The position numbers were made by a program, and so were the translations under genes. A DNA stretch of 53,950 nt from Alphaproteobacteria bacterium (GTDB taxonomy: Bacteria > Pseudomonadota > Alphaproteobacteria > CAAGCB01 > CAG-977), in contig JAFYCE010000062.1 of assembly GCA_017539865.1 (NCBI GenBank), positions 1 to 53,950 of the forward strand, in the 5' to 3' direction. Of this stretch, positions 315 to 51,427 are shown in pieces. Below the pieces are notes generated by a model that worked only from the letters and a program-made list of their open reading frames with translations, was not told where the DNA came from and did not search any database. Each line of letters begins with the position of its first letter. Within the stretch, counting starts at the first letter, position 1.

Positions 315-1406
315 ATGGAATTGAATTGGCGTCCCGGAATGCCCAGAAAAGAAGAAAAAGAATTTTTTTCGGATTTCTTGGAAACATTACGCAATAACTA
401 TAATGTGCGTCACCAGCCCAGACTGTTCAATTTCAAATGGCGGAAAGACCCCGAACCCGAACCGTGGCTGCCTGTTTACGACGATATGGTATTAAGCTAT
501 CTGACGCCTAAGGAAATCAAAAAATACGAAGACGCCGGAGAAACTAAAAAAAATATGATTGATCGCGCAAAAAACATGATTTTCGAACAAGCGTGGAACA
601 ATCATAAACCATATGAGGATTTTCAAAACGACTCCGATTTTCTGGAAAAGAAAGAAGCTTTCAGAAAAAACTTCGAAAAAGACCCTGTTTATCACACATT
701 AAGCATCGTCGCGCACAAGGAAAGTTTCCGTTCCGAATATTCGGGGAAACCTGAAGCTTGGGAATATCCGGACGTTCTGGCGGAAATGGCTGAAAAAAAG
801 CGTAACATCCATTTGATGCCCGTTCAATACATGATGAGCGATAGCGCTATCGGAAGAAGATCTTGGGAAATATTGAAAAACAATAAATATTTCATTGATT
901 TCGACGCGGCGGACGATACCGTTTGCAGCGTTGATACGGAAAAGAAAAAAATCACTTTGAACGCTTCCGCTTCAAAAGAGGCTTGTGTTTTGTCATTGGT
1001 TCGTTCTGCCCGTCTTTTGATGCCGGACGAATACAGCAACACATCTTCCGTCGAAGCAACGGAAGCCCGCAAAGCCGATGCCGTATCGGCTCAACTGGCT
1101 TTTGCCGAAGAAATGCGCGTGAAAAATCCGAAAATTCTGGCTGTGTTTAAAGCTAACGGAAATGAATCTTTGTGTGATGCGTTTGATAAAACTTTGAATG
1201 AAACGAACGACTGGGACGCCGCCCGCTCGGCCGCCGTCGACAGCTATTTAAACAAAGTCGCACATGACCGTAAACCGTCTTCGAAAATCATTGCCAGAAT
1301 GTGCAAAAACGTATACGGACTAAGCTATTACATCCCGTCCGGAAGCAATTCAAACGATACTGTTCGCACTGCAATCACGGTAAAAAACAAACAACAGGGA
1401 CGATGA
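315..1406 (+). CDS. Hypothetical protein; degenerate zincin-like paralogue of the 25273 and 50252 proteins
   Basis: 363 aa with RBS. C-half aligns by eye with 25273 (ITLN..LSLVRSAR vs IMLN..NCVHEMTH; EARKADAVSAQLAFAEEM vs RAKEAGAYVQESAFANEI); ends KNKQQGR. Confidence 0.7.
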   Translation: MELNWRPGMPRKEEKEFFSDFLETLRNNYNVRHQPRLFNFKWRKDPEPEPWLPVYDDMVLSYLTPKEIKKYEDAGETKKNMIDRAKNMIFEQAWNNHKPYEDFQNDSDFLEKKEAFRKNFEKDPVYHTLSIVAHKESFRSEYSGKPEAWEYPDVLAEMAEKKRNIHLMPVQYMMSDSAIGRRSWEILKNNKYFIDFDAADDTVCSVDTEKKKITLNASASKEACVLSLVRSARLLMPDEYSNTSSVEATEARKADAVSAQLAFAEEMRVKNPKILAVFKANGNESLCDAFDKTLNETNDWDAARSAAVDSYLNKVAHDRKPSSKIIARMCKNVYGLSYYIPSGSNSNDTVRTAITVKNKQQGR

Positions 1407-1421
1407 TTTTTTTCATACCGG

Positions 1422-1452
1422 AAACGGCGGAATTTTCAGATTCCGCCGTTTT
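1422..1452. terminator. Probable bidirectional terminator between convergent genes
   Basis: AAACGGCGGAAT-TTTCAG-ATTCCGCCGTTT hairpin. Confidence 0.75.
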
Positions 1453-1479
1453 ATCATCGTTTTCCCCGACGAAAAGCAG

Positions 1480-2055
1480 CTAATAGTTCTCTGCCGCGAT
1501 TTCGTAATATTCCTGTTTGTGCAGACAGGCGGGACAGATTTTCGGGGCTTCCGCGCCTTCGTGGACATAACCGCACTTGCGGCAACGCCATTTTTTCGGT
1601 TCCTCACGTTTGAAAACCCGCTCTTTTTGCATATTTTCCTGCAATTTGCGGTATCTCTGCCCGTGAAAGATTTCGGCGACGATCACCGCGCGATACATCT
1701 GCGCGATTTCAGGAAAACCCTCCTTTTCCGCCGTTTCGGCGCACATCGGATAAAGCTCTTTGTATTCGTGTTCCTCGCCTTTCGCCGCGTCATCAAGGTT
1801 TTCCAAAGTCGAACGGATCTGTCCCGCCGGATAGGTTCCCGTTACTTCCAAATCGCCGCCTTCAAGGAATTTGAACATACGCTTGGCGTGTTCCTTTTCC
1901 TGATCGGCCGTTTCCAGAAAAATCGCCGCGATCTGTTGATAGCCTTCCTTTTCGGCGACGCGCGCCCAGTAGGTGTATCGCATTCTGGCTTGCGATTCGC
2001 CCGCGAAAGTCATTAAAAGATTTTTTTCCGTTTGTGTTCCTTTGACAGATTTCAT
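1480..2055 (-). CDS. rbr: Rubrerythrin
   Basis: FAGESQA, EKEHAK, EEHE di-iron ligands; C-terminal rubredoxin-like CRKC...CPAC. Confidence 0.95.
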   Translation of the reverse strand: MKSVKGTQTEKNLLMTFAGESQARMRYTYWARVAEKEGYQQIAAIFLETADQEKEHAKRMFKFLEGGDLEVTGTYPAGQIRSTLENLDDAAKGEEHEYKELYPMCAETAEKEGFPEIAQMYRAVIVAEIFHGQRYRKLQENMQKERVFKREEPKKWRCRKCGYVHEGAEAPKICPACLHKQEYYEIAAENY

Positions 2056-2084
2056 TTGTTTTTCTCTCCTTTAAAGTTAAAAAA

Positions 2085-3857
2085 TCACGGAATGAACGGC
2101 GACAGATAAATCAATCCGTTATCCACTTTGAACATCATTTCGACACCGGCTTCGCGCAACTTTCTTTCGTCCATCAAAGCCTTGTCTTTCAGCCTGATAT
2201 GAACGCCGCCGTCCGCCGCGTGTTCGCCGCTTTCGATGTTGTGTTCGCCCCCCAAAGCTTTTTCGACCGCTTCGGACAGGGAGAACTTCTTTTCCGATGG
2301 AACGGGAATGTCCCGCGAATGTGTCCGCAAGTATTCCTCCATATCGGTTTTCAGATTTTCGGAAGCCGTCCCGAAAACCGCCTGAACGCCGGAACCGACA
2401 CGCATAACGCCGGCCGCCCCCAACGCTTTCAGCTTGTCGTCGGACGCTTTTGAAGGGTCGTTTAAAATCAGGCGCAAGCGTGTGATGCAGGCGTCAAGGT
2501 TCTTGATATTTTCACGGCCGCCGAACGCTTCGACCAATTTTTCAGCCATTTTCATTTTATCGTCATGCCCTGCCAGAGCGGCCGCCTGCGCCATCGGAAC
2601 GACAGAGTCCTCGTCCCGTCCGGGGGTCTTCATGTTAAACGCCGTGATGACAACGCGGAAAACGATGTAATACAAAACGGCGTAAACCGGCCCCAGAATG
2701 AAAACTATCCACGGCTTCGTATCAAGAGCATAAAACAATGCAAAGTCGATCGCGCCCTGCGAAAACGTGTAACCGATATGCGCGCCGACCAGATTTATCA
2801 GCGCAAAAGCCGATCCGACCATAACGGCGTGAATGAAATAGAGCATCGGCGCGACGAACAGAAAAGAAAATTCCAGCGGTTCCGTGATGCCCGTTAAAAA
2901 CGACGTCAACGCCGCGGACGCCATAATGCCGCTGACTTTCAAGCGATTTTCAGGCTTGGCGGTATGCAGAATCGCCAGCGCCGCCGCCGGCAGTCCGAAC
3001 ATCTTGATCAGGAAACCTCCGCCCAAAATGCCGGCCGTCTTGTCGCCTGCGAAAAAGCGGGGAATGTCGCCGGTAACGACTTCGCCCAGCTTGTTCGTGT
3101 AAGACCCGATTTCAAAAAAGAACGGCACGTTCCAGATATGATGAAGCCCGAACGGCAACAACAGCCTTTCAACAAAGCCGTAAGTGGCTCCCGCGACCGT
3201 CGGCGCGCTGTACGCCGCCCACATTGAAAACTCGCTGATTTTTTCCTGAATCGGCGGCCAGAACAGGCTTAAAAACACGCCGAGCACAATCGCCACCAAA
3301 GAGGTAATGATTGGAACGGAACGCTTTCCCGCGAAAAATCCCAAATAAGGCGGCAGCTGGATTCTGTAAAATCTTTTATAGATGTAAGCCGCGACGACGC
3401 CGACGAACAGACCGCCGAAAACGCCCGTTTCAATCGTCTTGATGCCCATATTCGTCGCAACGATTTTTCGGGCGAACGCAACGTCGTAATCCAACGACTG
3501 CGCCAGAACGCCCAACGTTTCCCGACCTTCGGAAACGTGGAACCACAACACGTCCGCCATGACGCCCATTGTCGCCAACATCACGATAAAGCCCGTCACC
3601 GCCGCCAACGCCGCAACACCGTCGTTATCCGTCAGCCCCAACGTCGTACCGATAGCGAAAATCAACGGCATATTGGCAAAAATCACATTGCCGCTTTGAC
3701 TCATGATTTGCGGAATAATTGGCGGAAGCCATGAAATTTCCGCCGTCAACAGTCCCGACCCGATGCCCAAAAGCAATCCCGCAACAGGCAGGACGGCAAC
3801 AGGCAGCATCAGGGATTTTCCGATTTGCTGTAAGAACATAAACACCTTTTTAATCAT
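2085..3857 (-). CDS. ptsG: PTS glucose-family EIICB, with an extra degenerate EIIB-like C-terminal domain
   Basis: [27 protein letters not shown]; [12 protein letters not shown] with the phospho-Cys. Confidence 0.9.
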
Positions 3858-3860
3858 AAT

Positions 3861-6395
3861 TCATTCTCCCCGACCGGATAAAAATTCTTCTACGATTTTA
3901 TGAACGGCAGAGGCCGTTTCCTGCCCGACGGCCAGCCTTGCCAAATCTTCACACCTTGCAAACGACAAAGAACGTATTTGCGCTTTGATAGCCGGAATCA
4001 AAGGCGGCACAACACTTAATTCTTTCACGCCCAGACCAATCAGAACGGGGACGGCTTTTTCCTCGCCCGCCATCGCGCCGCAGACGCCGACCCATTTGCC
4101 ATGCTTTTTCGCCCCCTCAACCGTCATTTGAATCATGCGCAGAACGGCGGGATGCAAGCCGTCCGACAACTCCGCCAACAACGGATTGCCCCGATCGCTT
4201 GCCATAACGTATTGGGTCAGGTCGTTCGTGCCGATTGAAAAGAAATCGACATAAGGGGCTAACACATCCGCCGTTATCGCCGCTGCGGGGATTTCAATCA
4301 TAATGCCCGTTTCGACCGCCGGAGCGTTCATCAGTTCCCGTTCTTCCGCAACGATTTGCTTGGCAAGTTTCAACTCCTCCAGCGTCGTCACCATCGGAAA
4401 CATAATACGGATTTTGGTCTTGTCCGCAGCTTTTAAAATCGCCCTGATTTGAGAGCGAAACAGCGCCTGATGACGCAGACTTAAGCGCAATCCGCGCACA
4501 CCAAGGAACGGATTGGCTTCCTCCGGTTCTTTGATATAGGGCAGTTCCTTGTCTCCGCCGACATCCAGCGTTCTGACAATTACGGATTTATTTTTACCGA
4601 TGATTTCGGCAATTTTACCATAAACGGCCGCTTGCTCCGGTTCGCTTGGCGCTTCCTGCCGGCTCAAGAATAAAAACTCCGAGCGCAAAAGTCCGACCGC
4701 CTCCCCGCCGGAAGAAACGACGCGGCTGGTGTCTTCCGCGCTGCCGACATTGCCCGCGATTTCCAGACGAACGCCATCCGTCGTAATCGCCGGTTCGTTT
4801 CTTTTCTGAAACAGCTCCGCCTGCGTCCGGTGTTCCTTTTCTTTGTGCCGCAGAACGTCTTTTTTTTCTTTTTCATCGGGATTCAAATGCAATTCCCCTT
4901 TTCCGCCGTCCAGCAAAACGGGCGTGCCGTTGATGATGTTCAACACTTTTTCCGACAATCCCGAAACGGCGGGCAACATCATCGAACGCGCCAAAATCGC
5001 CGCATGCGATGACGCTCCGCCAACAACGGTCGCAAACCCCGCCACCTTTGTTTTATCAAGCAAAGCTGTGTCGGAAGGCGTCAGCTCCCGCGTAATGATA
5101 ATCGCATTGTCGGGCAAACTGATTCTTTGTTCCGCCGTTCCCGTCAACAGTCTTAGCACGCGCTTTCCGACATCCTGCAAATCCGCCGCGCGGCCGGCCA
5201 ACAAAGCGTTTTTCATTTCCGAAAACTGCCGCGCCTGCTTGTTGATTGTCTGCTGCCACGCAAAAGCGGCGCTTCGGCCGTCCTCAATCAATTTTTGAGC
5301 GTTTTCAAGCAATTCCGGATCTCCCAGTAATTCCTGATGAGCGATGAAGATTGCGGCTTTATCCGGCTCCGACTTTTTCATCATCTTTTCACTTAAATCG
5401 GCCAATTCATCGGACGCTTCGGACAACGCATTCATCAGTTTTTCCTTTTCTTTGGACGGCGGCGCGCCGAATTCCTCGACATCGAAAGCGGCGTCTTTCA
5501 ACTGAACAGCCACGCCGACCGCCGTTCCCGAAGACGCCGCTATCCCGAAAAACAGATTTTCCCTATCCGCATCTTTTGAAACGTTTTCTTCGATCAAAAC
5601 AGGAGCTTGAGTCAGTTCCTCGCCCAAACCCGTTTCAATCATCGGAATCAGCTTTTTCATCGCTTCGGTTGCGTCATAGCCGTCCGCCGTCAGGCGTACA
5701 TGATCGCCGTTCTTGATATCCAAGGCCATCACGGCGGTCAGACTTTTGGCGTTTGCTTTTTTATCGCCGAAAACCAGTTCGATTTCACAATTAAACCGCT
5801 TGGCCGCATTGACCAGAACGGCAGCGGGACGCGCATGAAGCCCGACCGGATTTTTGATTTCGATCTTCCATGATTCCGTCTTCATCCCTTTAACGGACGG
5901 CATCGGAATGATTTGCGCCTCTTTTTTCAGAGCGACCGTTAAAATTACATCTTTGCCCGCCGTCACATTTTTGTTTGTCATTGCCGTAACGCCGGTTGTC
6001 TGCTCCATATTTGCGACGACGATTTCCGTTAAAAGACTTTTCCCGTTTTTTTCGATGACTTCCGGCTGAAAAGCAATCAGACAATCGCCTTTTCTGACTT
6101 TCTGTCCGACGGACACTTTCAAATCAAAACCGGTTCCTTTCAACAAAACCGTATCCAAACCGACGTGCATCAAAACATCGATGCCCTGCTCCGTCCGCAT
6201 GGTCAGAGCGTGCTTGGACGAATGAATGTTGACGATTGTTCCGTCACACGGCGCGCACAGCATAAACGAGGACGGTGCGATCGAAATACCGTCTCCGATT
6301 GTTTTTTGCGCGAACACCATGTCCGGCACGGTTTCGATCGACTGCGTCTTTCCCGAAACAGGGGCATAAAGTTCCAATATTTTATCTTTAATCAT
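3861..6395 (-). CDS. ptsP: Multiphosphoryl transfer protein EIIA(Glc)-HPr-Enzyme I fusion
   Basis: EIIA LMHVGLDTV; HPr GLHARPA and NAKS; EI SSHAAI, GLLRSEF, RTLDVGGDK, SIGTNDL. Start at 6395 with RBS GGGAGA. Confidence 0.92.
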   Translation of the reverse strand: MIKDKILELYAPVSGKTQSIETVPDMVFAQKTIGDGISIAPSSFMLCAPCDGTIVNIHSSKHALTMRTEQGIDVLMHVGLDTVLLKGTGFDLKVSVGQKVRKGDCLIAFQPEVIEKNGKSLLTEIVVANMEQTTGVTAMTNKNVTAGKDVILTVALKKEAQIIPMPSVKGMKTESWKIEIKNPVGLHARPAAVLVNAAKRFNCEIELVFGDKKANAKSLTAVMALDIKNGDHVRLTADGYDATEAMKKLIPMIETGLGEELTQAPVLIEENVSKDADRENLFFGIAASSGTAVGVAVQLKDAAFDVEEFGAPPSKEKEKLMNALSEASDELADLSEKMMKKSEPDKAAIFIAHQELLGDPELLENAQKLIEDGRSAAFAWQQTINKQARQFSEMKNALLAGRAADLQDVGKRVLRLLTGTAEQRISLPDNAIIITRELTPSDTALLDKTKVAGFATVVGGASSHAAILARSMMLPAVSGLSEKVLNIINGTPVLLDGGKGELHLNPDEKEKKDVLRHKEKEHRTQAELFQKRNEPAITTDGVRLEIAGNVGSAEDTSRVVSSGGEAVGLLRSEFLFLSRQEAPSEPEQAAVYGKIAEIIGKNKSVIVRTLDVGGDKELPYIKEPEEANPFLGVRGLRLSLRHQALFRSQIRAILKAADKTKIRIMFPMVTTLEELKLAKQIVAEERELMNAPAVETGIMIEIPAAAITADVLAPYVDFFSIGTNDLTQYVMASDRGNPLLAELSDGLHPAVLRMIQMTVEGAKKHGKWVGVCGAMAGEEKAVPVLIGLGVKELSVVPPLIPAIKAQIRSLSFARCEDLARLAVGQETASAVHKIVEEFLSGRGE

Positions 6396-6576
6396 AGAAA
6401 TCTCCCGCAAAAAATTTTCTTCAAAGTTTACGGAAAAAATCCGCGCTTTCCCAGACGGCAACAAGGCTATAAACCCCTTGTATACAAAGACTTTTTAAGC
6501 AAAATTTTTATTTGCTTTTCTTTCGCTGCGTTTGCGGGTAAAAATAGAAAAAACAACACTGCGGGATTGCGCCATT

Positions 6577-8043: not shown

Positions 8044-8084
8044 GCCGCACGTTTTACACGTGACCCGCTTTTTGGAGAGACCCC

Positions 8085-25210: not shown

Positions 25211-25239
25211 TTTACAAAAAAAATGGAATTGATTATTAT
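25211..25239 (+). promoter_or_regulatory. Sigma70-type promoter of ORF 25273
   Basis: TTTACA-17 nt-TATTAT; RBS AGGAGG at 25263. Confidence 0.55.
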
Positions 25240-25272: not shown

Positions 25273-26427
25273 ATGGGATTTCTTTCAGATTTATTTTCGA
25301 CTTCGAACGAAAACCGCACACGCACCGATATGGAAAAGAAGCTGTTCGTTCTGACGGATGAAAAAACGGGTTCGACCCGCGGGGCGAAAGACAGCGAAAA
25401 AGCGATTTTAAAGGAAGTTTTCGACATCATCGAGGAAGTTCCCGAAACAAAGAAATTATTGGATGAGGTCGCAAAGCAGGGATACAAGTTCTTTTTCCAA
25501 AAGGATACGGGAAACGTCGAAGGATGTTGTTATGCCGATGATAAAGTAATCATGCTCAATCCGACGATTTGCAAAAACACGGCGGAAATAGCCATTAACT
25601 GCGTCCATGAAATGACACACGCCATGCAGGACAAGAATCTGGGGACGATAAATAAGAATAAGTCCTCGTTAAACATGGCGGATCAGCTTCGACTGGACCG
25701 CGCAAAAGAAGCGGGAGCTTATGTTCAGGAATCGGCTTTTGCCAATGAAATTTTAAAGACGCACCCCGAAGTGCAGAAATTCGTCGAAAAGAATCCGATC
25801 TTGATGGCGTACAAGAATGAAATGGAAAAATCCGGCGATAAAAGCAAAGCCGCCGAAAAAACATTCAAACAATGGTACAATCTGGAAGAATACAGACAGC
25901 CTTATGACGATCTGCACGTCAAACACATCATTTTCGATTTGGATCATACGTCGAAAAAGAAACCGGTTTTAACGGAGTCGATGTCGCCCGAAGAAATGAT
26001 TCAGAAATGTATCTATTCTGAAGACCATAAAAAGGCCATTTCCCCTGAAATCATCAAATCGAAGGAAGCGAACGGATTGACCGACAAGGCGGCGGACAAA
26101 TTGCGGATCGTTCAGGAGAACGTCGACAAAATCTGGGGTGTCAAGGACACTTCGTTCGAAAAGATGTTTACGCACGATACGGGCATAACGCACGAAGAAG
26201 CGGCCAAACAGCCCAAACCGAAACAAGCCGAGGAAAAGCCCAAGGAGTCCATGATGGCGACTCTGAAGAAAACGGAACAGACGCAATCGAAGTCTTCGGG
26301 CGGCGCGTCCTTGATGGGAATGTTGGCCGGTATCGCGATGGATCTGGCTGTCGACGCTGCGAAAGCGAAAGTGGCCAACACCGTCAAAACGGAAGTCCTG
26401 AAAGCGGTCAAAGGCAACGACCGTTAA
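25273..26427 (+). CDS. Putative zincin-like metallopeptidase (HExxH)
   Basis: VHEMTHAMQ, with a downstream EAGA glutamate as candidate third ligand; monocistronic; ends AVKGNDR. Confidence 0.75.
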   Translation: MGFLSDLFSTSNENRTRTDMEKKLFVLTDEKTGSTRGAKDSEKAILKEVFDIIEEVPETKKLLDEVAKQGYKFFFQKDTGNVEGCCYADDKVIMLNPTICKNTAEIAINCVHEMTHAMQDKNLGTINKNKSSLNMADQLRLDRAKEAGAYVQESAFANEILKTHPEVQKFVEKNPILMAYKNEMEKSGDKSKAAEKTFKQWYNLEEYRQPYDDLHVKHIIFDLDHTSKKKPVLTESMSPEEMIQKCIYSEDHKKAISPEIIKSKEANGLTDKAADKLRIVQENVDKIWGVKDTSFEKMFTHDTGITHEEAAKQPKPKQAEEKPKESMMATLKKTEQTQSKSSGGASLMGMLAGIAMDLAVDAAKAKVANTVKTEVLKAVKGNDR

Positions 26428-26472: not shown

Positions 26473-26576
26473 ATTATCCGGAACTCAGGAACGCCTTCAA
26501 TCAAGCCCCCTTGCCAAGCTCTTCATGCAAGCCGCTTTTCGATAACAAAATCTTATCCGCATATTTTTACGGCAAC

Positions 26577-26606
26577 AGAAAAGGCGGGAAAAATTCCCGC
26601 CTTTCT
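26577..26606 (-). terminator. Terminator of aspS
   Basis: AAAGGCGGGAA-AAA-TTCCCGCCTTT hairpin immediately after the aspS stop. Confidence 0.8.
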
Positions 26607-26611
26607 CTTTT

Positions 26612-28399
26612 TTATTTCTTTTCAATCGTTTTCGGCAATTCGACCCGAATGTGCAGTTCTTTCAGCTGCTGCGGCGTGACTTCGCACGGCGCTTGCATCA
26701 TCAAATCCTGCGCCATACCGTTCATCGGGAACAGAATGACTTCGCGAATGTTCGGTTCATCGGCCAACAACATCACCATGCGGTCGATACCCGGAGCCGC
26801 ACCGCCGTGAGGAGGCGCACCATACTTGAACGCGTTCAACATACCGCCGAATTTGTGTTCGACGACTTCAGGGCCGTATCCGGCGATTTCAAACGCTTTA
26901 TACATAATGTCCGGTCTGTGGTTGCGGATTGCGCCGGAAGACAGCTCGATACCGTTGCAGACGATATCGTACTGGTAAGCGTTGATTTCCAGAGGATCTT
27001 TATTCAACAAAGCGTCCATTCCGCCCTGCGGCATCGAGAACGGATTGTGCGAAAAGATGATCTGGTTGGTTTCTTCGTCCAGTTCGAACATCGGAAAATC
27101 GGTGATCCAGCAGAACTTGAAGATGTCTTTTTCCAACAATTCCAACTGCTCGCAGATTTTCGTACGAACTTGTCCGGCGAACTTTTCGACTTTGCCTTTC
27201 TTTTCGCAGACAAAGAAGATCACATCGCCGTCCTTGACGCCGACGGATGTTTTGAGGTCGTTGATGCGGTCTTCGTCCAAATTCTTGGCAATCGCGCCTT
27301 TCGGGCCTTCGGTCGTGTAGGTGATGAAACCGATACCGGGCAGTCCGATTTCGCGCGCCCAGGCATTCATCTTGTCGAACCAGCTGCGTGGTTTTGTTGC
27401 AGCCCCCGGAGCCGGAATCGCGCGCACAACGGCGCCGCGTTCGATCGCATTGGCAAAAATGCCGAAACCGGAACCCGTAAAGATGTCGGTGACATCGGTA
27501 ATCAACAACGGGTTGCGCAGGTCGGGCTTATCGGAACCGTACTTCAGCATCGCTTCCGCATACGGAATGCGGGGGAACGGAGCCGGCGTCACTTTGCGGC
27601 CGTTGGCAAATTCTTCAAAGACGCCCTGCAAAACGGGTTCGATGGCGGCAAACACGTCTTCCTGCGTGACGAAAGCCATTTCGAAGTCCAGCTGATAGAA
27701 TTCGCCGGGGGAACGGTCGGCACGGCTGTCTTCATCACGGAAGCACGGCGCGATCTGGAAATAGCGGTCGAAACCGGAAACCATCAACAGCTGTTTGAAC
27801 TGCTGCGGAGCCTGCGGCAGAGCGTAGAACTGGCCGGGGTGCAGACGGGACGGAACCAGAAAGTCGCGTGCGCCTTCCGGACTGGAGGCGGTCAAAATCG
27901 GCGTCTGGTATTCGACGAAGCCCTGTTCAATCATGCGGCGGCGGCAGGAAGCGATGACCTGAGAGCGCAACAGCATGTTTTTATGCAACTTTTCACGGCG
28001 CAAATCCAAAAAGCGATAGCGCAGACGCGTGTCTTCGGGCTGTTCGAAATCGGCGGCGACCTGCAGCGGCAGGATGTCGGCTTCGGACAGAACTTCGGCT
28101 TCCGTTACGGATAATTCGATTTCGCCGGTCGGCAGGTTCGGATTGACGTTTTCCCCGCCGCGCAGAACGACTTCGCCCGTCACGCAAATAACGCTTTCGG
28201 GGCGGCACTTTTCCAACACCTTAAAGACGGGGCTGGAAATATCGACGACACACTGCGTAATGCCGTAATGGTCGCGCAAGTCGATGAAAACAAGATTCCC
28301 GTGGTCGCGTTTGCGATGAATCCATCCGGACAGACGGGCTTGTTTTCCCGCGTCGGAAGCACGCAGCTGACCGCAGGTATGCGAACGATATGTATGCAT
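26612..28399 (-). CDS. aspS: Aspartate-tRNA ligase
   Basis: [35 protein letters not shown]. Confidence 0.97.
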
Positions 28400-41456: not shown

Positions 41457-41467
41457 GGACGAAAACG

Positions 41468-41828: not shown

Positions 41829-42716
41829 ATGAACTGGTTGACAAGCTATGTGCGTCCCAAACTTCAAAGTTTGGTCGGTACAAAAGAGATTCCGGACAAT
41901 TTATGGGAAAAATGCCCGTCGTGCGGCGCGATGATTTATCACCGCGAACTGGAACAAAGCTTCAACATCTGTCCGCAATGCAACCATCATATGCGTCTGG
42001 ATCCTGAAAAACGGCTGGAGATGATGTTTGACGACGGCGTTTACACACCGATAGAACTGCCCGCAGTCAAAGAAGACCCTCTGAATTTTTCCGATTTGAA
42101 AGACTATACCGACCGGTTGAAAGACGCCCGCAAAAAAACGAAACAACAGGACGCCCTGCTTGTCGCTTCGGGCAAGATGGGCGGAATGAACGTTGTTGTC
42201 GGAATATTCAATTTCAACTTCATGGGCGGCTCGATGGGGACGGCTGTCGGCGAAGGAATCGTCACGGCGGTGGAACTGGCTTTACTGCAGGATGCGGCGT
42301 TGGTTTTGATTCCCGCTTCCGGCGGGGCGCGCATGCAGGAAGGCATTCTGTCGTTGATGCAGATGGCTCGAACGACCATGGCCGTCCGGAAATTAAAAGA
42401 AAAAGGATTGCCGTATTTTGTCATTTTGACCGACCCGACAATGGGCGGCGTTTCGGCATCTTTTGCCATGCTGGGCGACATCGCCATCGCCGAACCGGGG
42501 GCATTGATCGGTTTTGCCGGCGCCCGCGTCATTGAACAGACCATCCGCGCCAGCCTTCCCGAAGGCTTTCAAAAAGCCGAATACCTGATGGAACACGGCA
42601 TGGTCGATATGGTGATAGACCGCCGCAAGATTCGTCAAACGCTGATCAACCTGATGGATATGCTTCGCCATCCTCATCCGGCGACAGCTCCGGTTCCTTT
42701 CGTTCGTAAAAATTAA
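41829..42716 (+). CDS. accD: Acetyl-CoA carboxylase carboxyltransferase beta subunit
   Basis: LWEKCPSC..CPQC zinc finger, FMGGSMG, SGGARMQEG. Confidence 0.96.
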   Translation: MNWLTSYVRPKLQSLVGTKEIPDNLWEKCPSCGAMIYHRELEQSFNICPQCNHHMRLDPEKRLEMMFDDGVYTPIELPAVKEDPLNFSDLKDYTDRLKDARKKTKQQDALLVASGKMGGMNVVVGIFNFNFMGGSMGTAVGEGIVTAVELALLQDAALVLIPASGGARMQEGILSLMQMARTTMAVRKLKEKGLPYFVILTDPTMGGVSASFAMLGDIAIAEPGALIGFAGARVIEQTIRASLPEGFQKAEYLMEHGMVDMVIDRRKIRQTLINLMDMLRHPHPATAPVPFVRKN

Positions 42717-42727
42717 AGAGGTTTTTC

Positions 42728-43921: not shown

Positions 43922-43940
43922 TAACGCCTTTTTAATTACA

Positions 43941-43977
43941 AAAAGAAGCCTTCGGATTTTTCCAAAGGCTTCTTTTT
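43941..43977. terminator. Bidirectional terminator
   Basis: AAAAGAAGCCTT...AAGGCTTCTTTT between convergent genes. Confidence 0.85.
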
Positions 43978-44001
43978 CAAGGCAGGAAACGATGTCGTTT
44001 C

Positions 44002-46095
44002 TTAAACAACGCTGAACAGCAGGTCGGAATACGTCGGGAACGGCCAGTATTCTCTGGCAGTCAAGACTTCCGCCATATCGCACGCCGTACGCAATTCCGC
44101 CATTTTTCCGATGACGTTGTCGCGGACGGCATAGGATTTTTCAAAAACGTCAGTAATCATATCGACGCTTTTAACGGCTTGTTCCAATTCGCCGGCGGCT
44201 TTAATGGCTCTGACGGTCAGATCGGACAGTTTTGAAATCGTTTCCGTTTCAAAGGAAGCTTCGGCAATCGGACAGACTTTGTGTTTAACGTCCGCCGTTT
44301 CCGCCAGTTTTCCGATGTATTTTTCGATGGCCGGCAAAATTTCGCGGCGGGACATTTCAAGCATGGTGTTTGCTTCGATCAAAACGGTTTTCACATAGTT
44401 TTCCAAAATGATCTCGCAGCGCGAAGCCAATTCGGCTCGACTGAAAACGCCTTGTTTCATCAGCATGGAAGCGTTCTTTTCATCTAGCGATCTCGGCATG
44501 CAGTCCGGCGTCGTCTTCAAATTGGAAAGGCCGCGCTTTTCGGCTTCTTTAATCCACGATTCATCATAACCGTTTCCATCGAATAAAATGCGTTTGTGGT
44601 TTGTGATTGCGGTTTTCAACAAATCTTTCAACGCTGTTTTGAAATCCGTTGCGTTTTCCAGAACGTCGGCGTATTCGGACAACGTTTCCGCAACCGCCGC
44701 GTTCAGCATGATGTTAGCGCAGGCGATGCTGTTTGACGACCCGAGCATACGGAATTCAAACTTGTTGCCCGTAAAAGCGAACGGGGAAGTCCGGTTGCGG
44801 TCGGTGGTATCGCGCAGGAACTTCGGCAGAGCCGGAACGCCGAACATCATTTCCGTTTTCTTGACGCCGTCAAAGGAGGTGCCGTTTTCGATCGCGTTCA
44901 AGACTCCGGTCAGTTCTTCGCCCAAAAAGATGGAAACGATGGCGGGAGGTGCTTCATTCGCGCCCAGACGGTGGTCGTTGCCTGCTGAAGCGACGGAGGA
45001 TCTCAGCAGATCCTGATAGGTGTCGACGGATTGAATGATCGCGCAAAGGAACAGCAGGAAGCGTGCGTTTTCCGCCGGTGTTTCCCCCGGTTTCAGCAGA
45101 TTGTCGCCGCCGTCGGTCGCCAAAGACCAGTTGTTGTGCTTACCGCTACCATTAACGCCCGCGAACGGTTTTTCGTGCAGCAGGCAAACCAATCCGTGCC
45201 GCAAGGCGACTTTTTGCATCAATTCCATCGTCAGCTGATTGTGATCCGTTGCAATGTTGGCGGTTACAAATATCGGCGCCATTTCGTGCTGCGACGGGGC
45301 GACTTCGTTATGTTCGGTTTTGGCCAGAATGCCCGCTTTCCACAATTCTTCGTTCAAATCGGCCATAAATTCGGCGACACGGGGTTTGATGGAACCGAAA
45401 TAGTGGTCTTCCAATTCCTGCCCTTTCGGCGGTTTTGCGCCGAACAGCGTGCGTCCGGTAAAGATCAGGTCTTTGCGTTTTTTGAACAGTTCGCGATCGA
45501 TCAGAAAATATTCCTGTTCCGGACCGACACAGGGAACGACGCGCTTTGTTGCTTGGTCGCCGAACAGGCGCAGGATCCTCAACGCTTGCGTATTCAGAGC
45601 CTCCATCGAACGGAGCAGAGGCGTCTTCTTGTCCAGAACCGAACCGTCATAAGAACAGAAGGCGGTCGGAATGCACAAAGTTTTGTCTTTTATGAAAGCG
45701 AAGGAAGTCGGATCCCACGCCGTATAGCCGCGCGCTTCGAACGTGGCGCGCAGGCCGCCGGACGGAAAAGAGGAAGCGTCGGGTTCGCCGTGAATCAGTT
45801 CTTTTCCGGAAAATTCCATAATGATACCGCCGTCGGGAGACGGAGAAATGAAGCTGTCGTGTTTTTCCGCTGTCAGTCCGGTCATCGGTTGAAACCAATG
45901 GGTGAAGTGGGTCGCCCCTTTCGAGATCGCCCAGTTTTTCATCGCGTTGGCAACGGGGTTCGCAACGGAAATATCCAAAGGCGCGCCTTCGTCGATCGTT
46001 TTTTTCAGGGAACGGTAAACGTTCGCATCCAGTGACGCTTTCATTGCGCGTTCGTTAAAAACCATGCTGCCGAACAGTTCGGGAATACTCTCCAT
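44002..46095 (-). CDS. glnA: Glutamine synthetase type III
   Basis: [65 protein letters not shown]. Confidence 0.95.
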
Positions 46096-46119
46096 TTTTT
46101 TTCTCCGTAAAAAAAGCAC

Positions 46120-46165
46120 AAAAAAAGACGTATCGAAGGAAAAACCTTCGAGACGCCTTTGTCTC
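46120..46165 (-). promoter_or_regulatory. ANTAR-type hairpin overlapping a leader terminator (attenuator) of glnA-III
   Basis: Minus strand GAGAC-AAAGGC-GTCTC (hexaloop with A1/G4) overlaps the 5' arm of AAGGCGTCTCGAAGG-TTTTT-CCTTCGATACGTCTT plus U run. Confidence 0.8.
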
Positions 46166-46176
46166 AACAGAGCAGA

Positions 46177-46229
46177 GTATTATCCCTTTGAAAAAAAGAT
46201 TGCAAGGATTTTTTTTCGGGTGGTATAAA
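46177..46229. promoter_or_regulatory. Divergent sigma70-type promoters sharing a palindromic -35 (TTGCAA, 46200-46205)
   Basis: Plus: TTGCAA-18 nt-TATAAA with extended TG; minus: TTGCAA-17 nt-TAATAC. Confidence 0.55.
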
Positions 46230-46238
46230 GAAAACAGA

Positions 46239-46297
46239 GAACAATGGCGTTCACCCGACGGGAAATGTATGTTTTCCGCGGATGGGCGTTTTTTTTT
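46239..46297 (+). promoter_or_regulatory. ANTAR-type hairpin overlapping a leader terminator of the GS-I-like/ANTAR/nadE operon
   Basis: GAAC-AATGGC-GTTC (A1/G4 hexaloop) overlaps the terminator GCGTTCA..CGGGAAA..TTTTCCG..TGGGCG followed by T9. Confidence 0.8.
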
Positions 46298-46317
46298 GCA
46301 AGAAACGGAGAACGGCT

Positions 46318-47526
46318 ATGAAATATACGGTGGAAGACGTCAAAAACTATATTCGCGAAGAGGACGTGAAATTCATCCGTCTGGCGTTTTGCGATGTTTA
46401 CGGCACACAAAAGAACATATCCGTCATGCCCGATGAAATCGACCGCGCTTTTACGACCGGCATCGCGTTTGACGCTTCGGCCGTCAAAGGATTCGGCGAT
46501 GAGGCTCATTCGGATTTGTTTCTTAGTCCCGATCCGGCGACTTTGGCCGTTTTTCCGTGGCGTCCCGAACACGGCCGCGTTGTCCGTATGTTCTGCTCAA
46601 TCAAACGTCCGGACGGCAGTCTTTTTGAAAACGACACGCGCTCCATTCTGCAAAAAGCCGTTAAAACGGCGGAGGAAAAGGGCGTTTCCTTTTCTTTCGG
46701 CGCGGAAATGGAATTTTTTCTTTACCTGTGCGACGAAAACGGCGAACCGACTCAAATCCCCTATGACAAAGCGGGATATATGGATATCGCCCCCAAAGAC
46801 AAAGGCGAAAACGTCCGCCGCGAGATTTGCCTGACACTGGAACAGATGGGCTTTCATCCGGAAGCCTCCCATCATGAGGAAGGGCCGGGGCAGAACGAAA
46901 TCGATTTCCGTTATTCCGATCCGTTAGGCGCGGCGGACGACACGATCACTTTCCGCAGTGTCGTCAGAACGATCGCCGCCAGAAACGGGCTATACGCCGA
47001 TTTTTCGCCCAAGCCGCTGACCGACAAACCGGGAAACGGATTCCATATCAACTTTTCGGCTCAAAAAACGGACGGAACGGATGTGACGACTTTCGCCGCC
47101 GCCGGTGTTCTGGATAAATCCGCCGCAATGACGCTTTTTTTGAATCCGTCCGAAAATTCTTACGCCCGTTTCGGAAAAAGCAAAGCGCCGCGTTATATCG
47201 CGTGGTCGGAACAAAACCGCTCGCCGCTGATCCGGATTCCGGCGGCGCAAGGAGAATACCGCCGCGCCGAACTGCGTTCGCCCGATTCCGAAACAAATCC
47301 GTATGTGGCGTTTGCGTTGATGATCCATGCGGGACTGGAGGGAATCGAAAACAAAATGATTTTACCGCCGCCCGCCGGTTTCAACCTGTTCACCGCAACG
47401 CCCGAACAACTGGAACGTTTTGCCGTACTGCCGCAATCGCTTTCAGAAGCCCGTCAAACGGCGGTTTCGTCGGATTTCATTAAAGCAACTCTGCCGGCTT
47501 CTCTGACGGATTCGTATTTGTTGTAA
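46318..47526 (+). CDS. Glutamine synthetase type I-like protein (short)
   Basis: VKFIRLAFCD, GAEMEFF, SHHEEGPGQNEIDF, PKP..GNGFH, NRSPLIRIP, ELRSPD. Confidence 0.88.
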   Translation: MKYTVEDVKNYIREEDVKFIRLAFCDVYGTQKNISVMPDEIDRAFTTGIAFDASAVKGFGDEAHSDLFLSPDPATLAVFPWRPEHGRVVRMFCSIKRPDGSLFENDTRSILQKAVKTAEEKGVSFSFGAEMEFFLYLCDENGEPTQIPYDKAGYMDIAPKDKGENVRREICLTLEQMGFHPEASHHEEGPGQNEIDFRYSDPLGAADDTITFRSVVRTIAARNGLYADFSPKPLTDKPGNGFHINFSAQKTDGTDVTTFAAAGVLDKSAAMTLFLNPSENSYARFGKSKAPRYIAWSEQNRSPLIRIPAAQGEYRRAELRSPDSETNPYVAFALMIHAGLEGIENKMILPPPAGFNLFTATPEQLERFAVLPQSLSEARQTAVSSDFIKATLPASLTDSYLL

Positions 47527-47536
47527 AGGAACATCT

Positions 47537-48118
47537 ATGCAGGCCGAACGCGTCTATTCCGTGCTGATCGTTTCCGCGAATGATAAATTTGCGGACGCTT
47601 TCCGCGCGCGTTTGGATTCCGTTCTTTTCCCCGACATATCCGTTGTTTCGAATGAAGCGGCGGCGAAACGCGCCGTTTTGGATAAAACGTTCGATATCGT
47701 CCTGATAAATTGTCCTTTGCCGGACGCGTTCGGCGACGAATTGGCCGCCGACCTTTGCAGGAAATCGCAGTCTGCCGCGGCGTTATGTGTCAACGCTTCG
47801 ATTTACGACGAAGTCTTTGCCAAAGTGTATTCTTCCGGTGTGTTTGTGCTGAAAAAACCCCTGACGACGGAAATGATCGATCAGGCGGTCGATTGGCTTC
47901 GCACCGTGCGCGAGCGTCTGCGGAAAAATCAGGAAAAGAATGTCAGCCTGCAGGAAAAGATGGAGGAGATCCGCTTGGTCAACCGTGCTAAATGGCTGTT
48001 GATCGATAAATTGAAAATGACCGAAAGCGACGCTCACCGCTTTATTGAAAAGCAGGCGATGAATCTGGGAATCACCAAAAAGGAAATGGCTGATAAAGTC
48101 ATTCGGTCATACGGTTGA
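47537..48118 (+). CDS. ANTAR RNA-binding antiterminator with atypical receiver domain (NitR/AmiR-like)
   Basis: C-terminal EEIRLVNRAKWLLI..MTESDAHRFIEKQAM ANTAR motif; receiver reads DIVLIN rather than D..D. Confidence 0.9.
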   Translation: MQAERVYSVLIVSANDKFADAFRARLDSVLFPDISVVSNEAAAKRAVLDKTFDIVLINCPLPDAFGDELAADLCRKSQSAAALCVNASIYDEVFAKVYSSGVFVLKKPLTTEMIDQAVDWLRTVRERLRKNQEKNVSLQEKMEEIRLVNRAKWLLIDKLKMTESDAHRFIEKQAMNLGITKKEMADKVIRSYG

Positions 48119-48131
48119 AAGGAATGAAAAA

Positions 48132-50036
48132 ATGAAAGACGGTTTTATCAAAGTTGCGGCCGTTACGCCGGAAGTCAAAGTCGCCGACGTCGATTACAAC
48201 AGCCAAACCGTTTGTTCTTATATGGAACAAATCGCGCGGGAAAAAATCAAAGTCGCGGTGTTTCCGGAACTTTGCCTGACCGGCTATTCGTGCCAAGATC
48301 TTTTTTTGCAGGACAGCTTGTCGGAAACCGCGGAAAAAGCCCTTTTGACCGTTGCCAAAAAAAGCGAAAAAATCGACGGCTTGTTTTTTATCGGTTTGCC
48401 GTTGGTCGTTGACGGAAAGCTTTATAATACGGCGGCGGCCGTCAGCCGCGGAAAAATCCTCGGCATTGTTCCGAAAATCCATTTGCCGAACTACAATGAA
48501 TTTTACGAAGCCCGCCATTTCCATTCCGGCAGGAACTTGGATACGGCCGTTCAAATCGGCGGCCGAACTGTTCCGGTCAAAAGCAAGCTGATGTTTTGTT
48601 GTAAAGAAATGCCGTCCCTTAGGATTGCGGCGGAATTGTGCGAAGATTTATGGACGCCGGAGCCTCCGAGCATTGCTCATTGCTTGGCGGGGGCGACGGT
48701 GATCGCAAACCTGTCGGCGTCGAACGAAATCACGGGAAAAAGCCGCTACCGCAGAGAGTTGGTCAAAGGGCAGTCGGCACGGCTGATTTGCGGCTATGTG
48801 TATGCTTCGGCCGGAAACGGCGAATCTACGCAGGATGTCGTTTATTCCGGACATGACATTATCGCCGAAAACGGAACCGTTCTGGCCGAATCGAAAGTCT
48901 TTTCCGAAGGGATTACGGCGGCGGAATTCGACCTGAAACGGCTGGAATCCGATCGCAGAAGAATGACGACTTATGAATCGGAACCGGATGACGACTATAC
49001 GAAAGAGACTTTTTCGCTTGAGGTTGCTGAAACGGAACTGCACCGTTTCATCGATCCGTATCCGTTTGTACCGTCCGATAAATCGGAAAGGGATGTCCGG
49101 TGCGACGAAATCATTTCCATTCAAGCCTCAGGATTGAAAAAACGCTTGGAGCATATCGGTTGTAAACGGGCCGTTATCGGCATTTCCGGCGGGTTGGATT
49201 CCACTCTGGCTTTGTTGGTGACGGCACGGGCTTTTGATTTGCTCGGGCTGGACAGGAAAGGAATTCTGGCCGTCACGATGCCCGGTTTCGGCACGACCGA
49301 CCGCACCTATAACAACGCCGTTTCCTTGATTCGCCGTCTCGGGGCGGAGTTTTCGGAAATCAATATCGCCAATGCGGTCACCGTTCACTTTGCGGATATC
49401 GGACACGACCCGCAGGTGCGCGATGTCACGTATGAAAATTCTCAAGCTCGGGAAAGAACGCAAATTCTGATGGATTTGGCCAATCAAAACAACGGAATCG
49501 TTATTGGAACGGGCGATTTGTCCGAACTGGCGTTAGGCTGGGCGACGTATTGCGGCGATCATATGTCCATGTATGCCGTCAACGCTTCCGTACCGAAAAC
49601 GCTGGTCAGACATTTGGTCGGATATTTTGCGGACACCTGCGGGGAAAAGGAACTTTCGGACACGTTGCGCGACATTCTGGACACGCCTGTATCTCCCGAG
49701 CTTCTGCCGGCGGAAAACGGAAAAATATCCCAAAAAACGGAAGATCTGGTCGGGCCTTACGAACTGCACGACTTTTTCCTGTATCATATGCTCAGAGGCG
49801 GCAGTACGCCTGACAAAATCCGCCGTCTGGCCGAAATCGCCTTTAAAGACAAGTATGCGGACGCCGTTATTCTGAAATGGGAAAAGACATTCTATCAACG
49901 CTTTTTCGCGCAACACTTCAAACGGAGCTGTCTGCCGGACGGCCCGAAAGTGGGATCGGTCGCATTGTCGCCCCGCGGAGATCTGCGGATGCCGACGGAC
50001 GCCTGCGCTTCGATCTGGTTGAAAGAATTGGATTGA
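48132..50036 (+). CDS. nadE: Glutamine-dependent NAD+ synthetase
   Basis: Nitrilase domain FPEL, PK.HLPNY, ELCEDLW; synthetase GISGGLDS, ENSQARER, GTGDLSE. Confidence 0.95.
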   Translation: MKDGFIKVAAVTPEVKVADVDYNSQTVCSYMEQIAREKIKVAVFPELCLTGYSCQDLFLQDSLSETAEKALLTVAKKSEKIDGLFFIGLPLVVDGKLYNTAAAVSRGKILGIVPKIHLPNYNEFYEARHFHSGRNLDTAVQIGGRTVPVKSKLMFCCKEMPSLRIAAELCEDLWTPEPPSIAHCLAGATVIANLSASNEITGKSRYRRELVKGQSARLICGYVYASAGNGESTQDVVYSGHDIIAENGTVLAESKVFSEGITAAEFDLKRLESDRRRMTTYESEPDDDYTKETFSLEVAETELHRFIDPYPFVPSDKSERDVRCDEIISIQASGLKKRLEHIGCKRAVIGISGGLDSTLALLVTARAFDLLGLDRKGILAVTMPGFGTTDRTYNNAVSLIRRLGAEFSEINIANAVTVHFADIGHDPQVRDVTYENSQARERTQILMDLANQNNGIVIGTGDLSELALGWATYCGDHMSMYAVNASVPKTLVRHLVGYFADTCGEKELSDTLRDILDTPVSPELLPAENGKISQKTEDLVGPYELHDFFLYHMLRGGSTPDKIRRLAEIAFKDKYADAVILKWEKTFYQRFFAQHFKRSCLPDGPKVGSVALSPRGDLRMPTDACASIWLKELD

Positions 50037-50181
50037 CTGGGAACTGTCATTCATTTTTCTTTTATTTTTCAATAAGTTGTCGGATTTTAAGTTTCATTCT
50101 TGCCAATCTGGTTTTAACAAGGTTTATTTGCGCGATGCTGCCGTAAAAAGGAAGACGCGAAAAAATTTTTTTCAAAAAAGC

Positions 50182-50210
50182 TTGACAAAAAAATAAAAAA
50201 TAACGATATT
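50182..50210 (+). promoter_or_regulatory. Sigma70-type promoter of ORF 50252
   Basis: TTGACA-17 nt-GATATT; G-rich RBS before ATG 50252. Confidence 0.5.
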
Positions 50211-50251
50211 TACAGTTGCATTTACTTTTTAAAATACAGGGGGGGGTAGAA

Positions 50252-51427
50252 ATGTCGTTCCTTGCAAAAATTTTCGGTAAGAAAAAATCACATACGGAAG
50301 AAAACAAACAGGGGCAATCTGCTGTAACAAATGTTTCCGTAAAGAATCCCGAAGAACGCACTCGTGAGGATTTGGAACGGGATCTGGCTGTCATAACACA
50401 GAAAGATCCTGAAACGGGCGCGCTGATAACCCGTGCCCCCGGAAAAAAAGAGAAATCATATTTAAAACAAACACTTGATTTCATCGAAAAGGTTTCCGGC
50501 GGCAAGGAAATGTTGGACGATATAGCCAAAAAGGGATACAGAATCGTTTTCAGCGAAAAGAAAAATGATGAAAGCAAGGAAAGTTATAGAACCGACAAGG
50601 ACTGGTACAGCCGGTCAGCGATCATGCTTTCCTTGGACAGCCATAAAACGACGCAGGGATTGGCACTTTCCTGCATGCATTTTTTAGGATGTATAAAGCA
50701 GAATGAACAGCTCAAGGCGGCCGGAATAGTGGAAAAGGATTTGAATATGGCCGACCAAATCAGACTGGATCGCGCGCGAACTGTCGCCCGATACGCTCTG
50801 GAAGCGGAACTGGTCGTTCAAATGTCGAAAATCGAACCGAATGATGAAGGCGGGCTGAGCTTGACCCTTCCCTACGGCTTGAAGCAGGTTTTTGCCATAC
50901 ATCCGCCCATAAAAGCGTATGCTCAAGAAATGCTGAACACCGCCGGCGACAGAGGCAAATCCGTTGAAAAAGTGGCGGATTCGTTTTGCGAAGCAACCCA
51001 TGACGTGAAATATTATCGCGACGCCTATGAACAAACATATATCCGGAACATCATAAACGGATTAAACAATTCTCCGGATAACCGGACGGCTCTGCAAAAA
51101 TCGCTGACACCGGAAGAAATGGTGAAGGTCAGCTTTGTCAAACTGTTTCAGAAAAACGTTTCACCCGATTTTCTGAAATCGGAAGAGATGAATTCCCTGT
51201 CCGAAAATGCGCTCAACAAGCTGCAGGCCATATCCGAAGAGTGCGAAAAGGCGGGAATTAAAGACAGATCTTTTAAACAGCTGCATCCGCATGATCTGCG
51301 ATTGTCATATAAAGAAATGAAAAAGCTGACTGCGGCACTGAAAAGAAATAAAAAAGAACAGTCTGCCGAAACGAAAAAACCGGCTAATGCCGCTTTTATG
51401 GCAAAAATCAAACAAGAGGGAAGATAA
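50252..51427 (+). CDS. Paralogue of the 25273 metallopeptidase-like protein with destroyed HExxH
   Basis: LNMADQIRLDRA vs LNMADQLRLDRA; SCMHFLGCIKQ in place of NCVHEMTHAMQ; ends KIKQEGR. Confidence 0.78.
   Translation: MSFLAKIFGKKKSHTEENKQGQSAVTNVSVKNPEERTREDLERDLAVITQKDPETGALITRAPGKKEKSYLKQTLDFIEKVSGGKEMLDDIAKKGYRIVFSEKKNDESKESYRTDKDWYSRSAIMLSLDSHKTTQGLALSCMHFLGCIKQNEQLKAAGIVEKDLNMADQIRLDRARTVARYALEAELVVQMSKIEPNDEGGLSLTLPYGLKQVFAIHPPIKAYAQEMLNTAGDRGKSVEKVADSFCEATHDVKYYRDAYEQTYIRNIINGLNNSPDNRTALQKSLTPEEMVKVSFVKLFQKNVSPDFLKSEEMNSLSENALNKLQAISEECEKAGIKDRSFKQLHPHDLRLSYKEMKKLTAALKRNKKEQSAETKKPANAAFMAKIKQEGR

Follow-up and report, generated by a model that had tools for sequence, protein, structure and literature searches.

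Three genes spread along a contig of an uncultured gut alphaproteobacterium encode proteins that probably belong to a new, large family predicted to be substrates of type IVA secretion. Some members would be proteases and others pseudo-enzymes, and a modular, basic C-terminal tail ending in Arg would serve as their address. The contig (C31; GenBank JAFYCE010000062.1) is called the window here, meaning the whole stretch of 53,950 nucleotides that was analysed, and the genome to which it belongs (handle G000) comprises 1.95 Mb in 131 contigs, is 93% complete and has a G+C content of 47.9%. The three open reading frames (ORFs), named after their first positions as ORF 315, ORF 25273 and ORF 50252, are members of the DUF6782 family (Pfam PF20573). 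The evidence consists of direct observations on family membership, expansion and motif states, on the enrichment and modularity of the tail, on the presence and conservation of a type IV secretion system (T4SS), and on a phyletic association between the family and such systems. An original prediction, made from the window, had described a translocated effector family with active and dead members, and the sequence comparisons reported below support that interpretation; each computational check that it called for came out in its favour, the fold search yielding weak matches.

The three ORFs form part of a lineage-specific, fast-turnover DUF6782 expansion of soluble proteins of about 350 amino acids (aa) with a zincin-like core, defined by HExxHxxQ, a Glu some 30 residues downstream and a conserved Tyr. 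According to the mechanism proposed here, they would be substrates of the chromosomal VirB/VirD4 (type IVA) system of this bacterium. Their address label would be an unstructured Lys/Arg-rich tail, in which a short, Ala-rich and weakly amphipathic stretch is followed by K-x-K-x-x-[G/S/E]-R-COOH, and which, as we propose, may dock electrostatically on the hyper-acidic last 75 residues of VirD4. Inside the target cell, copies whose site is intact would be active as metalloproteases; the approximately 20 degenerate copies may bind without catalysis or serve as decoys. Of this scheme, we infer translocation, docking on VirD4, the activity as proteases and the nature of the target, which may be eukaryotic or bacterial.

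The DUF6782 family and its active sites

The three ORFs lie where the original prediction had placed them. Their features are as follows.

315..1406, + strand: ORF 315, DUF6782 paralogue of 363 aa, catalytically degenerate (RSARL for HExxH, KADA for EADA)
257..284, + strand: sigma-70-like promoter match of ORF 315 (TTGATT, 16-nucleotide spacer, TATAAT; 10/12), a consensus match only
1356..1403, + strand: basic tail of ORF 315, last 16 codons, ending ...KNKQQGR
25273..26427, + strand: ORF 25273, DUF6782 paralogue of 384 aa with intact HEMTH, Q119, E146 and Y211
25211..25239, + strand: sigma-70-like promoter match of ORF 25273 (10/12), a consensus match only
25606..25620, + strand: HEMTH codons (residues 112-116), putative zinc-binding/catalytic motif
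25708..25710, + strand: E146 codon, putative third zinc ligand
26377..26424, + strand: basic tail of ORF 25273, last 16 codons, ending ...LKAVKGNDR
50252..51427, + strand: ORF 50252, DUF6782 paralogue of 391 aa from ATG (a TTG at 50216 would give 403), catalytically degenerate (HFLGC, TVAR)
50182..50210, + strand: sigma-70-like promoter match of ORF 50252 (TTGACA, 17-nucleotide spacer, GATATT; 10/12), a consensus match only
51377..51424, + strand: basic tail of ORF 50252, last 16 codons, ...PANAAFMAKIKQEGR, near the family consensus

The paralogy of ORFs 25273 and 50252 is borne out by BLASTP (31% identity over 357 columns, E 3e-50), the alignment placing CVHEMTHAMQ over CMHFLGCIKQ and RAKEAGAY over RARTVARY. 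Pairwise BLASTP of ORF 315 against these two gave no significant match, and its proposed standing as a weaker member of the same family is upheld by profile comparisons. ORF 315 scores 34.4 bits against the Pfam DUF6782 model, for which the curated gathering cut-off is 27 bits (whole-protein score) and ORF 25273 reaches 112.8 bits. Aligned by hhalign, a profile of nine ORF 315-like sequences matches a profile of 29 HExxH-type members with a probability of 99.6% (E 2e-24, 199 columns), with VRSARL under VHExxH and KADA under EADA. ORF 50252, which has no Pfam match of its own, joins DUF6782 through ORF 25273 and through the genome's own family hidden Markov model (HMM). Pfam names PF20573 a 'putative metallopeptidase family', and its record, as far as it was seen, mentions neither the expansion nor the pseudo-enzyme branches, terminal-Arg tail and T4SS association found here. 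NCBIfam holds no model naming the three window proteins, and no mention of DUF6782 or PF20573 was found in the literature searched.

A family of three, as originally counted, is a large underestimate. An HMM iterated to convergence on the stop-to-stop ORFs of the genome recovers 49 ORF pieces of the family. Of these, 33 reach 280 aa or more and most of the others are cut at contig ends; together the 49 amount to 46.7 kb, or 2.4% of the assembly, and the Pfam model alone scores above its cut-off at 33 places. Some copies stand alone, and others form tandem pairs or triplets (contigs C113, C60, C86 and C13). Each of 24 sister genomes carries 13-38 copies, and one genome of a second bacterial family also has DUF6782; searches of 15 other families of the class found none. 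ORF 315-like copies number 13 in this genome and none in 26 relatives at E <= 1e-15, a threshold below which weaker relatives were not sought. ORF 25273 is not at the syntenic spot beside the aspartyl-tRNA synthetase (AspRS) gene in the three closest named relatives, and hence has no positional orthologue there. The sequences thus compared indicate a family that turns over quickly and undergoes species-specific expansion.

The active-site census divides the pieces into 22 copies with HExxH, all followed by E-A-[D/A/G]-A, 21 degenerate copies and six fragments that do not contain the region. Across the 29 HExxH-type sequences, H112, E113, H116, Q119, E146, A147, A149 and Y211 are invariant; HExxH with a downstream Glu and a Tyr is the gluzincin pattern. 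Within the window, ORF 25273 is, as predicted, the only one to keep HExxH and the downstream Glu, the third-ligand position being K in ORF 315 and T in ORF 50252. A quick maximum-likelihood tree of 70 rows (own copies below 280 aa, and foreign copies below 250 aa or 40 bits, were omitted) makes ORF 50252 the sister of the intact ORF 25273 (support 89) and places ORF 315 within a separate, all-degenerate clade of 11 members, made up of this genome's copies only (support 95). This placement implies at least two losses of the catalytic site.

An AlphaFold2 model of ORF 25273, built on a 33-row alignment, has a mean predicted local distance difference test score (pLDDT) of 84.6 and a predicted template modelling score (pTM) of 0.81. 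It comprises a small sheet, a helix (103-123) that contains HEMTH, a second long helix (135-160) that contains E146, and a helical domain, followed by a disordered segment (321-345, pLDDT <50) and a long, low-confidence terminal helix that leads into the basic tail.

The original statement that none of the three proteins has a Sec signal peptide agrees with a reading of the sequences, in which their N-termini hold no hydrophobic signal-peptide core. The N-termini MGFLSDLF and MSFLAKIFG are likewise as described, but the FLxxLF pattern marks one subfamily and not the whole family. One family member elsewhere in the genome (C97:6819-7976, with an intact HEGTH) has, after MGKIANIFSGKK, a stretch (...ALAWAIAGATLLSPLNAAAQ) resembling a signal-peptide core, and nothing similar occurs in the window ORFs.

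A shared tail and type IV secretion systems

The ends KNKQQGR, AVKGNDR and KIKQEGR are present in the three proteins, and the suggestion that Lys-rich, Arg-ended tails are enriched genome-wide proved correct. Tail statistics were drawn from the 41 family ORFs with a genuine stop and compared with 5377 other ORFs of at least 100 aa. Arg is the last residue in 38 of the 41, and Gly-Arg ends 27 of them, against 61 of the 5377 others. The consensus is roughly N-A-A-F-x-A-K-x-K-Q-x-G-R, and the last 20 aa have on average a net charge of +3.4 in the family and +0.8 in the other ORFs. Of about 1840 family representatives in public data, the best 148 were inspected: R is the last residue in 118 of them, and HExxHxxQ is present in 138.

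The tail also occurs outside the family. Scored with a position-specific scoring matrix (PSSM) of the last 16 residues at a threshold of at least 8 bits, 12 of the 5377 non-family C-termini are positive, against one of 5377 random internal windows. In a control set from other alphaproteobacteria (2272 C-termini, 76 loci) none passes; its different and probably less Lys-rich composition flatters the contrast. The non-family carriers include proteins with RelA/SpoT, metallo-beta-lactamase/beta-CASP, peptidase M3, GH77 and HAD domains, as well as several with no Pfam match at E <= 0.01. Because it is also appended to unrelated enzymes, the tail is modular.

The peptidase M3 protein PepF is the clearest case among these carriers. 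All 22 orthologues in the bacterial family (76-100% identity, four genera) extend about 30 residues past ...FVDELE, through a freely variable linker to a final residue that is Arg in 22 of 22, while six outgroup proteins and a 60%-identical copy in genome G020 stop at ...FVDELE and have no tail. Since the last position is kept while the preceding residues drift, this feature is under selection, and the pattern suggests recognition of a free C-terminus. The bacterial family has two PepF paralogues (C57:13263-15158, locus L044, with relatives L145-L164); the one with the Arg-terminal tail is 76-90% identical among genomes, and the other is 43-53% identical to it.

Two more observations concern tail-bearing proteins. 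The best non-family tail score, 21 bits, belongs to a 229-aa RelA/SpoT-domain protein (C26:6166-6852, L039; ...SLAAFMAKRTGAER), which has the size of a small alarmone synthetase and is a candidate non-protease substrate. Three adjacent genes at C51:50397-53638 (L040, L057 and L056), encoding proteins of 233-320 aa that match no Pfam family above cut-off, have K-rich ...GR ends and may constitute a second, unrelated tail-bearing family.

A search of the genome for virB/virD4 loci found two sets. The chromosomal set is split. On C29, atpH adjoins a virB3 fragment, virB4 and five ORFs that match no Pfam family; two virB8 genes, virB9, a 2187-aa frame with a terminal VirB10 domain and virB11 lie on C23; and C48 carries a 780-aa virD4, while another virD4 paralogue lies next to a fragment of the DUF6782 family on C44. 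This layout resembles that of the Rickettsiales rvh system. The giant VirB10 frame (C23:37366-43926, most of it lying in locus L063:7364-11974) matches the NCBIfam models VirB10 and ComB10 at about residues 1212-1427, out of 1536 that were scanned, and shows a weak YD-repeat match; its N-terminal part spans 1800 residues, and the sister-lineage versions are 1349 and 1761 aa long. The second set (C88:4000-23999, L059) forms a compact cluster between two resolvase genes and is broken up by an AAA_14/DUF4143 gene. As relatives of its VirD4 are sporadic in the sister genomes (28-30% rows), it looks like a conjugative, integrated element.

The 780-aa VirD4 is conserved: each of the 24 sister genomes has an orthologue with 79-91% identity, and the second family has one with 64%. 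Its last 75 residues are hyper-acidic in each of the 24 orthologues examined, with 27-50 D/E against 1-6 K/R. According to reviews, type IVA signals are positively charged C-termini that are recognized by VirD4 (PMC12981334, PMC8740702), and the C-terminal domains of type IV coupling proteins are rich in Asp/Glu and affect substrate choice (PMC7434980). A predicted complex of VirD4 residues 125-780 (24-orthologue alignment) with the last 72 residues of ORF 50252 scored 0.00, which speaks neither way.

Other export routes were considered. The genome carries a TssC/VipB sheath gene of a type VI secretion system (C6:1639-2541, 447 bits), but TssC occurs in only seven of the 24 sister genomes, so that this system is an accessory trait and was rejected as the general route. 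Matches to TIGR01843 (HlyD type), which would point to a type I system, are all below threshold. FHIPEP matches look like flagellar FlhA split across two contigs. A literature search for RF32 or CAG-239 together with secretion systems returned nothing relevant.

The association extends beyond the immediate relatives. DUF6782, VirD4 and DotH/IcmK, the last a type IVB marker, were sought in an even set of 301 genomes of the class, taken as one identical sample because the searches share handles; VirD4 relatives were counted at E <= 1e-60. DUF6782 is carried by 20 of the 301 genomes, and a T4SS marker (VirD4 relative or DotH/IcmK) by 18 of these 20 carriers against 34 of the 281 non-carriers. Nine carriers have a VirD4 relative, nine have DotH/IcmK and two (G046 and G314) have neither; the non-carriers comprise 20 with a VirD4 relative and 14 with DotH, with no overlap, the 14 including G066, which is flagged unpublished. 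In G097, G170 and G318, DUF6782 is multi-copy and DotH adjoins a TrbI/DotG-like gene; VirB4 was not found in these three genomes, nor VirD4 in G097 and G318. DotH has no match in the window's own genome.

The tails follow the kind of machine. In VirD4-type genomes 47 of 56 copies end in Arg (own genome 38/41, G081 5/5, G134 3/8, G106 1/1, G058 0/1), against two of 32 in Dot/Icm-type genomes and none of four in G046. Copies from the Dot/Icm-type genomes (L220-L247 in G097, G170 and G318) have Pro/Arg-rich ends, such as ...GRPLRPF, ...PVPMPVF and ...RRLGM, and in about 14 of 20 at least one of the three final residues is hydrophobic, a count made by eye and with no control. Across the class, then, the distribution of the family parallels that of type IV systems, and the Arg-ended tail goes with the VirD4 (IVA) kind.

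A bolder extension of this pattern is possible, though we consider it somewhat doubtful. One family may have been re-addressed between type IVA and type IVB systems by swapping only its last 15-30 residues, with a minimal, portable [G/S]R-COOH label strong enough to have been added to a housekeeping peptidase, PepF, for its export. The IVA label would then be read by the hyper-acidic VirD4 tail, and the Dot/Icm lineages would use a Pro/Arg-rich, hydrophobic-ended tail on the same fold.

Several known systems offer points of comparison. The type IVA effectors VirF and VirE2 of Agrobacterium, the Beps of Bartonella and the X-Tfes of Xanthomonas likewise have a basic, unstructured C-terminus in which Arg is important, together with VirD4 in the genome (PMC8740702, PMC12981334). 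The proteins described here differ from them in having no BID or XVIPCD domain, in their sharper consensus with an exact [G/S/E]R-COOH end, and in forming a single fold of about 40 copies in a gut commensal-type alphaproteobacterium, where their translocation is predicted. Gluzincin toxins (anthrax lethal factor, clostridial neurotoxin light chains) and minimal zincins (Wss1/SprT, selecase) share the HExxH helix, the Glu on the next helix and the conserved Tyr; with 12-17% identity, matches in the chance range and no receptor-binding or translocation domains on the DUF6782 side, the likeness is one of fold only and does not make them members. In other alphaproteobacterial families, DUF6782 is multi-copy alongside DotH/IcmK, recalling Legionella-like Dot/Icm repertoires, whereas the copies in the window's own genome end in a Lys-rich tail with terminal Arg.

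Setting of the three genes

The three genes stand alone among housekeeping genes, as the original prediction had it, each as a single insertion, except that one neighbour is an autotransporter. The other neighbours encode a rubrerythrin, a phosphotransferase system EIIC/B protein, a class II aldolase, AspRS and an NAD synthetase. The autotransporter (51873-53906, - strand) has a beta-domain at residues 472-667 and a passenger of near-identical repeats of about 45 aa (...NNLSLSDNVNVNANTSLNFT...); as listed, its ORF begins with TTG and may be longer.

The claim that each gene has its own sigma70-like promoter holds in so far as a 10/12 site precedes each ORF, ending 31 to 42 bases upstream of the start codon, but such sites are no commoner per region than in shuffled sequence. 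Inspection by eye of the regions upstream of 32 family genes disclosed no shared regulatory motif beyond ordinary -35/-10 elements, ribosome-binding sites and the similarity of recent duplicates.

The AspRS is 94%, 88% and 90% identical to those on contigs of 'uncultured Rhodospirillaceae bacterium' (two records) and 'Alphaproteobacteria bacterium UBA2903'. Near-identical DNA occurs in animal gut metagenomes, eight runs containing at least half of the sampled words, of which three may be the window's own source. In two sheep-gut studies, RNA libraries yielded contigs that span much of ORF 25273 (X8: 25273-25662, 25736-25923 and 25901-26390; X17: four pieces), which cannot prove transcription; some stretches, such as 26476-26624 in X8, have no cover. 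One contig each from X8 and X17 matches ORF 25273 from the ATG on and differs upstream, where it has its own GGAGG; to judge by these contigs, the gene seems to sit in other contexts in other strains, with a breakpoint at the start codon.

Competing explanations and significance

Several points weigh against a role of the family as type IVA substrates. There is no direct evidence of secretion. Several tail carriers look like ordinary cytoplasmic enzymes (PepF, MalQ, PepN-like, HAD), which is odd for injected effectors, and the outside control of the tail matrix is favourable in composition. The mobile-looking C88 set exists as well, so that finding a T4SS in the genome carries little weight on its own. 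In the class-wide sample, G046 and G314 carry DUF6782 with neither T4SS marker, G134 has a VirD4 orthologue yet few Arg-ended copies, and the VirD4-type carrier families may be close kin, related genomes not being independent. On the quick tree a single, weakly supported branch (69%) separates the IVB-lineage copies from the rest, so that the IVA/IVB tail contrast needs only one evolutionary change and could reflect shared descent rather than function. With regard to fold, Foldseek with the ORF 25273 model returned nothing at E <= 0.001; the weak rows, all with E > 0.03, are mostly zincins (lethal factor, selecase, Wss1, aureolysin, IrrE). An exhaustive VIA-align search gave a best Z of 8.8 to 8s5f, the HExxH domain of an alpha-ketoglutarate oxygenase (root-mean-square deviation 4.0, 182 residues aligned), 7.9 to 22ob and 5.9-6.5 to neurotoxin light chains, lethal factor and Wss1, scores within the tool's stated chance range, where Z 7-8 is typical when there is no true match. 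As only weak zincin and HExxH matches were obtained, the modelled fold is consistent with a zincin that has no close solved relative.

These observations bear on three other explanations. It is unlikely, in our estimation, that the proteins are type IV-exported antibacterial toxins used against rival gut bacteria and not against a eukaryotic host cell, in the manner of Xanthomonas-type X-T4SS effectors, with the dead paralogues as decoys or immunity-like partners. The habitat, a dense gut community, would suit such a role, and a language-model look-alike cluster (rank 19, score 0.88) with X-Tfes_XVIPCD in 25% of its members provides a lead only; however, none of the three ORFs matches PF20410 (XVIPCD) at E <= 1, no paired small immunity gene was noticed beside the three window genes, and the dead copies also carry the export tail. 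Alternatively, the proteins could stay inside the producer as cytoplasmic or membrane-peripheral peptidases and pseudo-peptidases, the tail being a membrane-tethering helix, a localization signal or a degron, the N-terminal FLxxLF helix of one subfamily serving the same purpose, and the T4SS link reflecting shared ancestry and lifestyle. This has the merit of explaining why the tail is found on normally cytoplasmic PepF, GH77/MalQ, HAD and M1 aminopeptidase proteins and why tails show a hydrophobic i, i+3/4 pattern followed by Lys, and the single tree change behind the IVA/IVB contrast would suffice for it. We nevertheless regard it as quite unlikely, for the near-invariant last R, in 38 of 41 copies and 22 of 22 PepF after variable linkers, argues for recognition of a free C-terminus and not for generic membrane affinity; the excess of T4SS markers among carriers (18/20 against 34/281) is a further objection, and single-gene, non-syntenic insertions with species-specific expansion fit an arms-race family better than a housekeeping one.

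The remaining explanation concerns the enzyme and not its destination. The HExxH core might belong to another metal enzyme, such as an iron/alpha-ketoglutarate-dependent HExxH oxygenase acting on peptides, as the two best structural matches, 8s5f and 22ob, are of that kind. HExxH oxygenases occur in pathways for RiPPs, peptides made on the ribosome and modified after translation (PMC12636437). The window genes, in contrast, stand alone, with no precursor peptide or biosynthetic neighbours, and both Z values are in the chance range. The invariance of HExxH, Glu and Tyr in all 29 sequences follows the gluzincin pattern instead, which leaves the oxygenase improbable.

If the DUF6782 proteins are type IVA substrates, their value would lie partly in the signal. 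Type IVA signals are notoriously vague ('positively charged C-terminus'), and effector prediction is hard beyond a few pathogens. Dozens of paralogues and several unrelated proteins with one sharp terminal-Arg consensus, together with an acidic-tailed coupling protein, make signal recognition directly testable. Should the re-addressing between IVA and IVB systems be true, this would be the cleanest natural type IVA signal consensus yet, on an effector set of about 50 proteins, half of them pseudo-enzymes, in a presumed commensal. The repeated loss of the catalytic site in a predicted exported family would also offer a natural system for the study of pseudo-enzyme effectors. For the biology of the organism, a role in type IVA export would mean that a widespread, uncultured group of gut alphaproteobacteria spends more than 2% of a small genome on injected proteins, and the view of its lifestyle would shift from passive commensalism to interaction with host, protist or rival bacterial cells.

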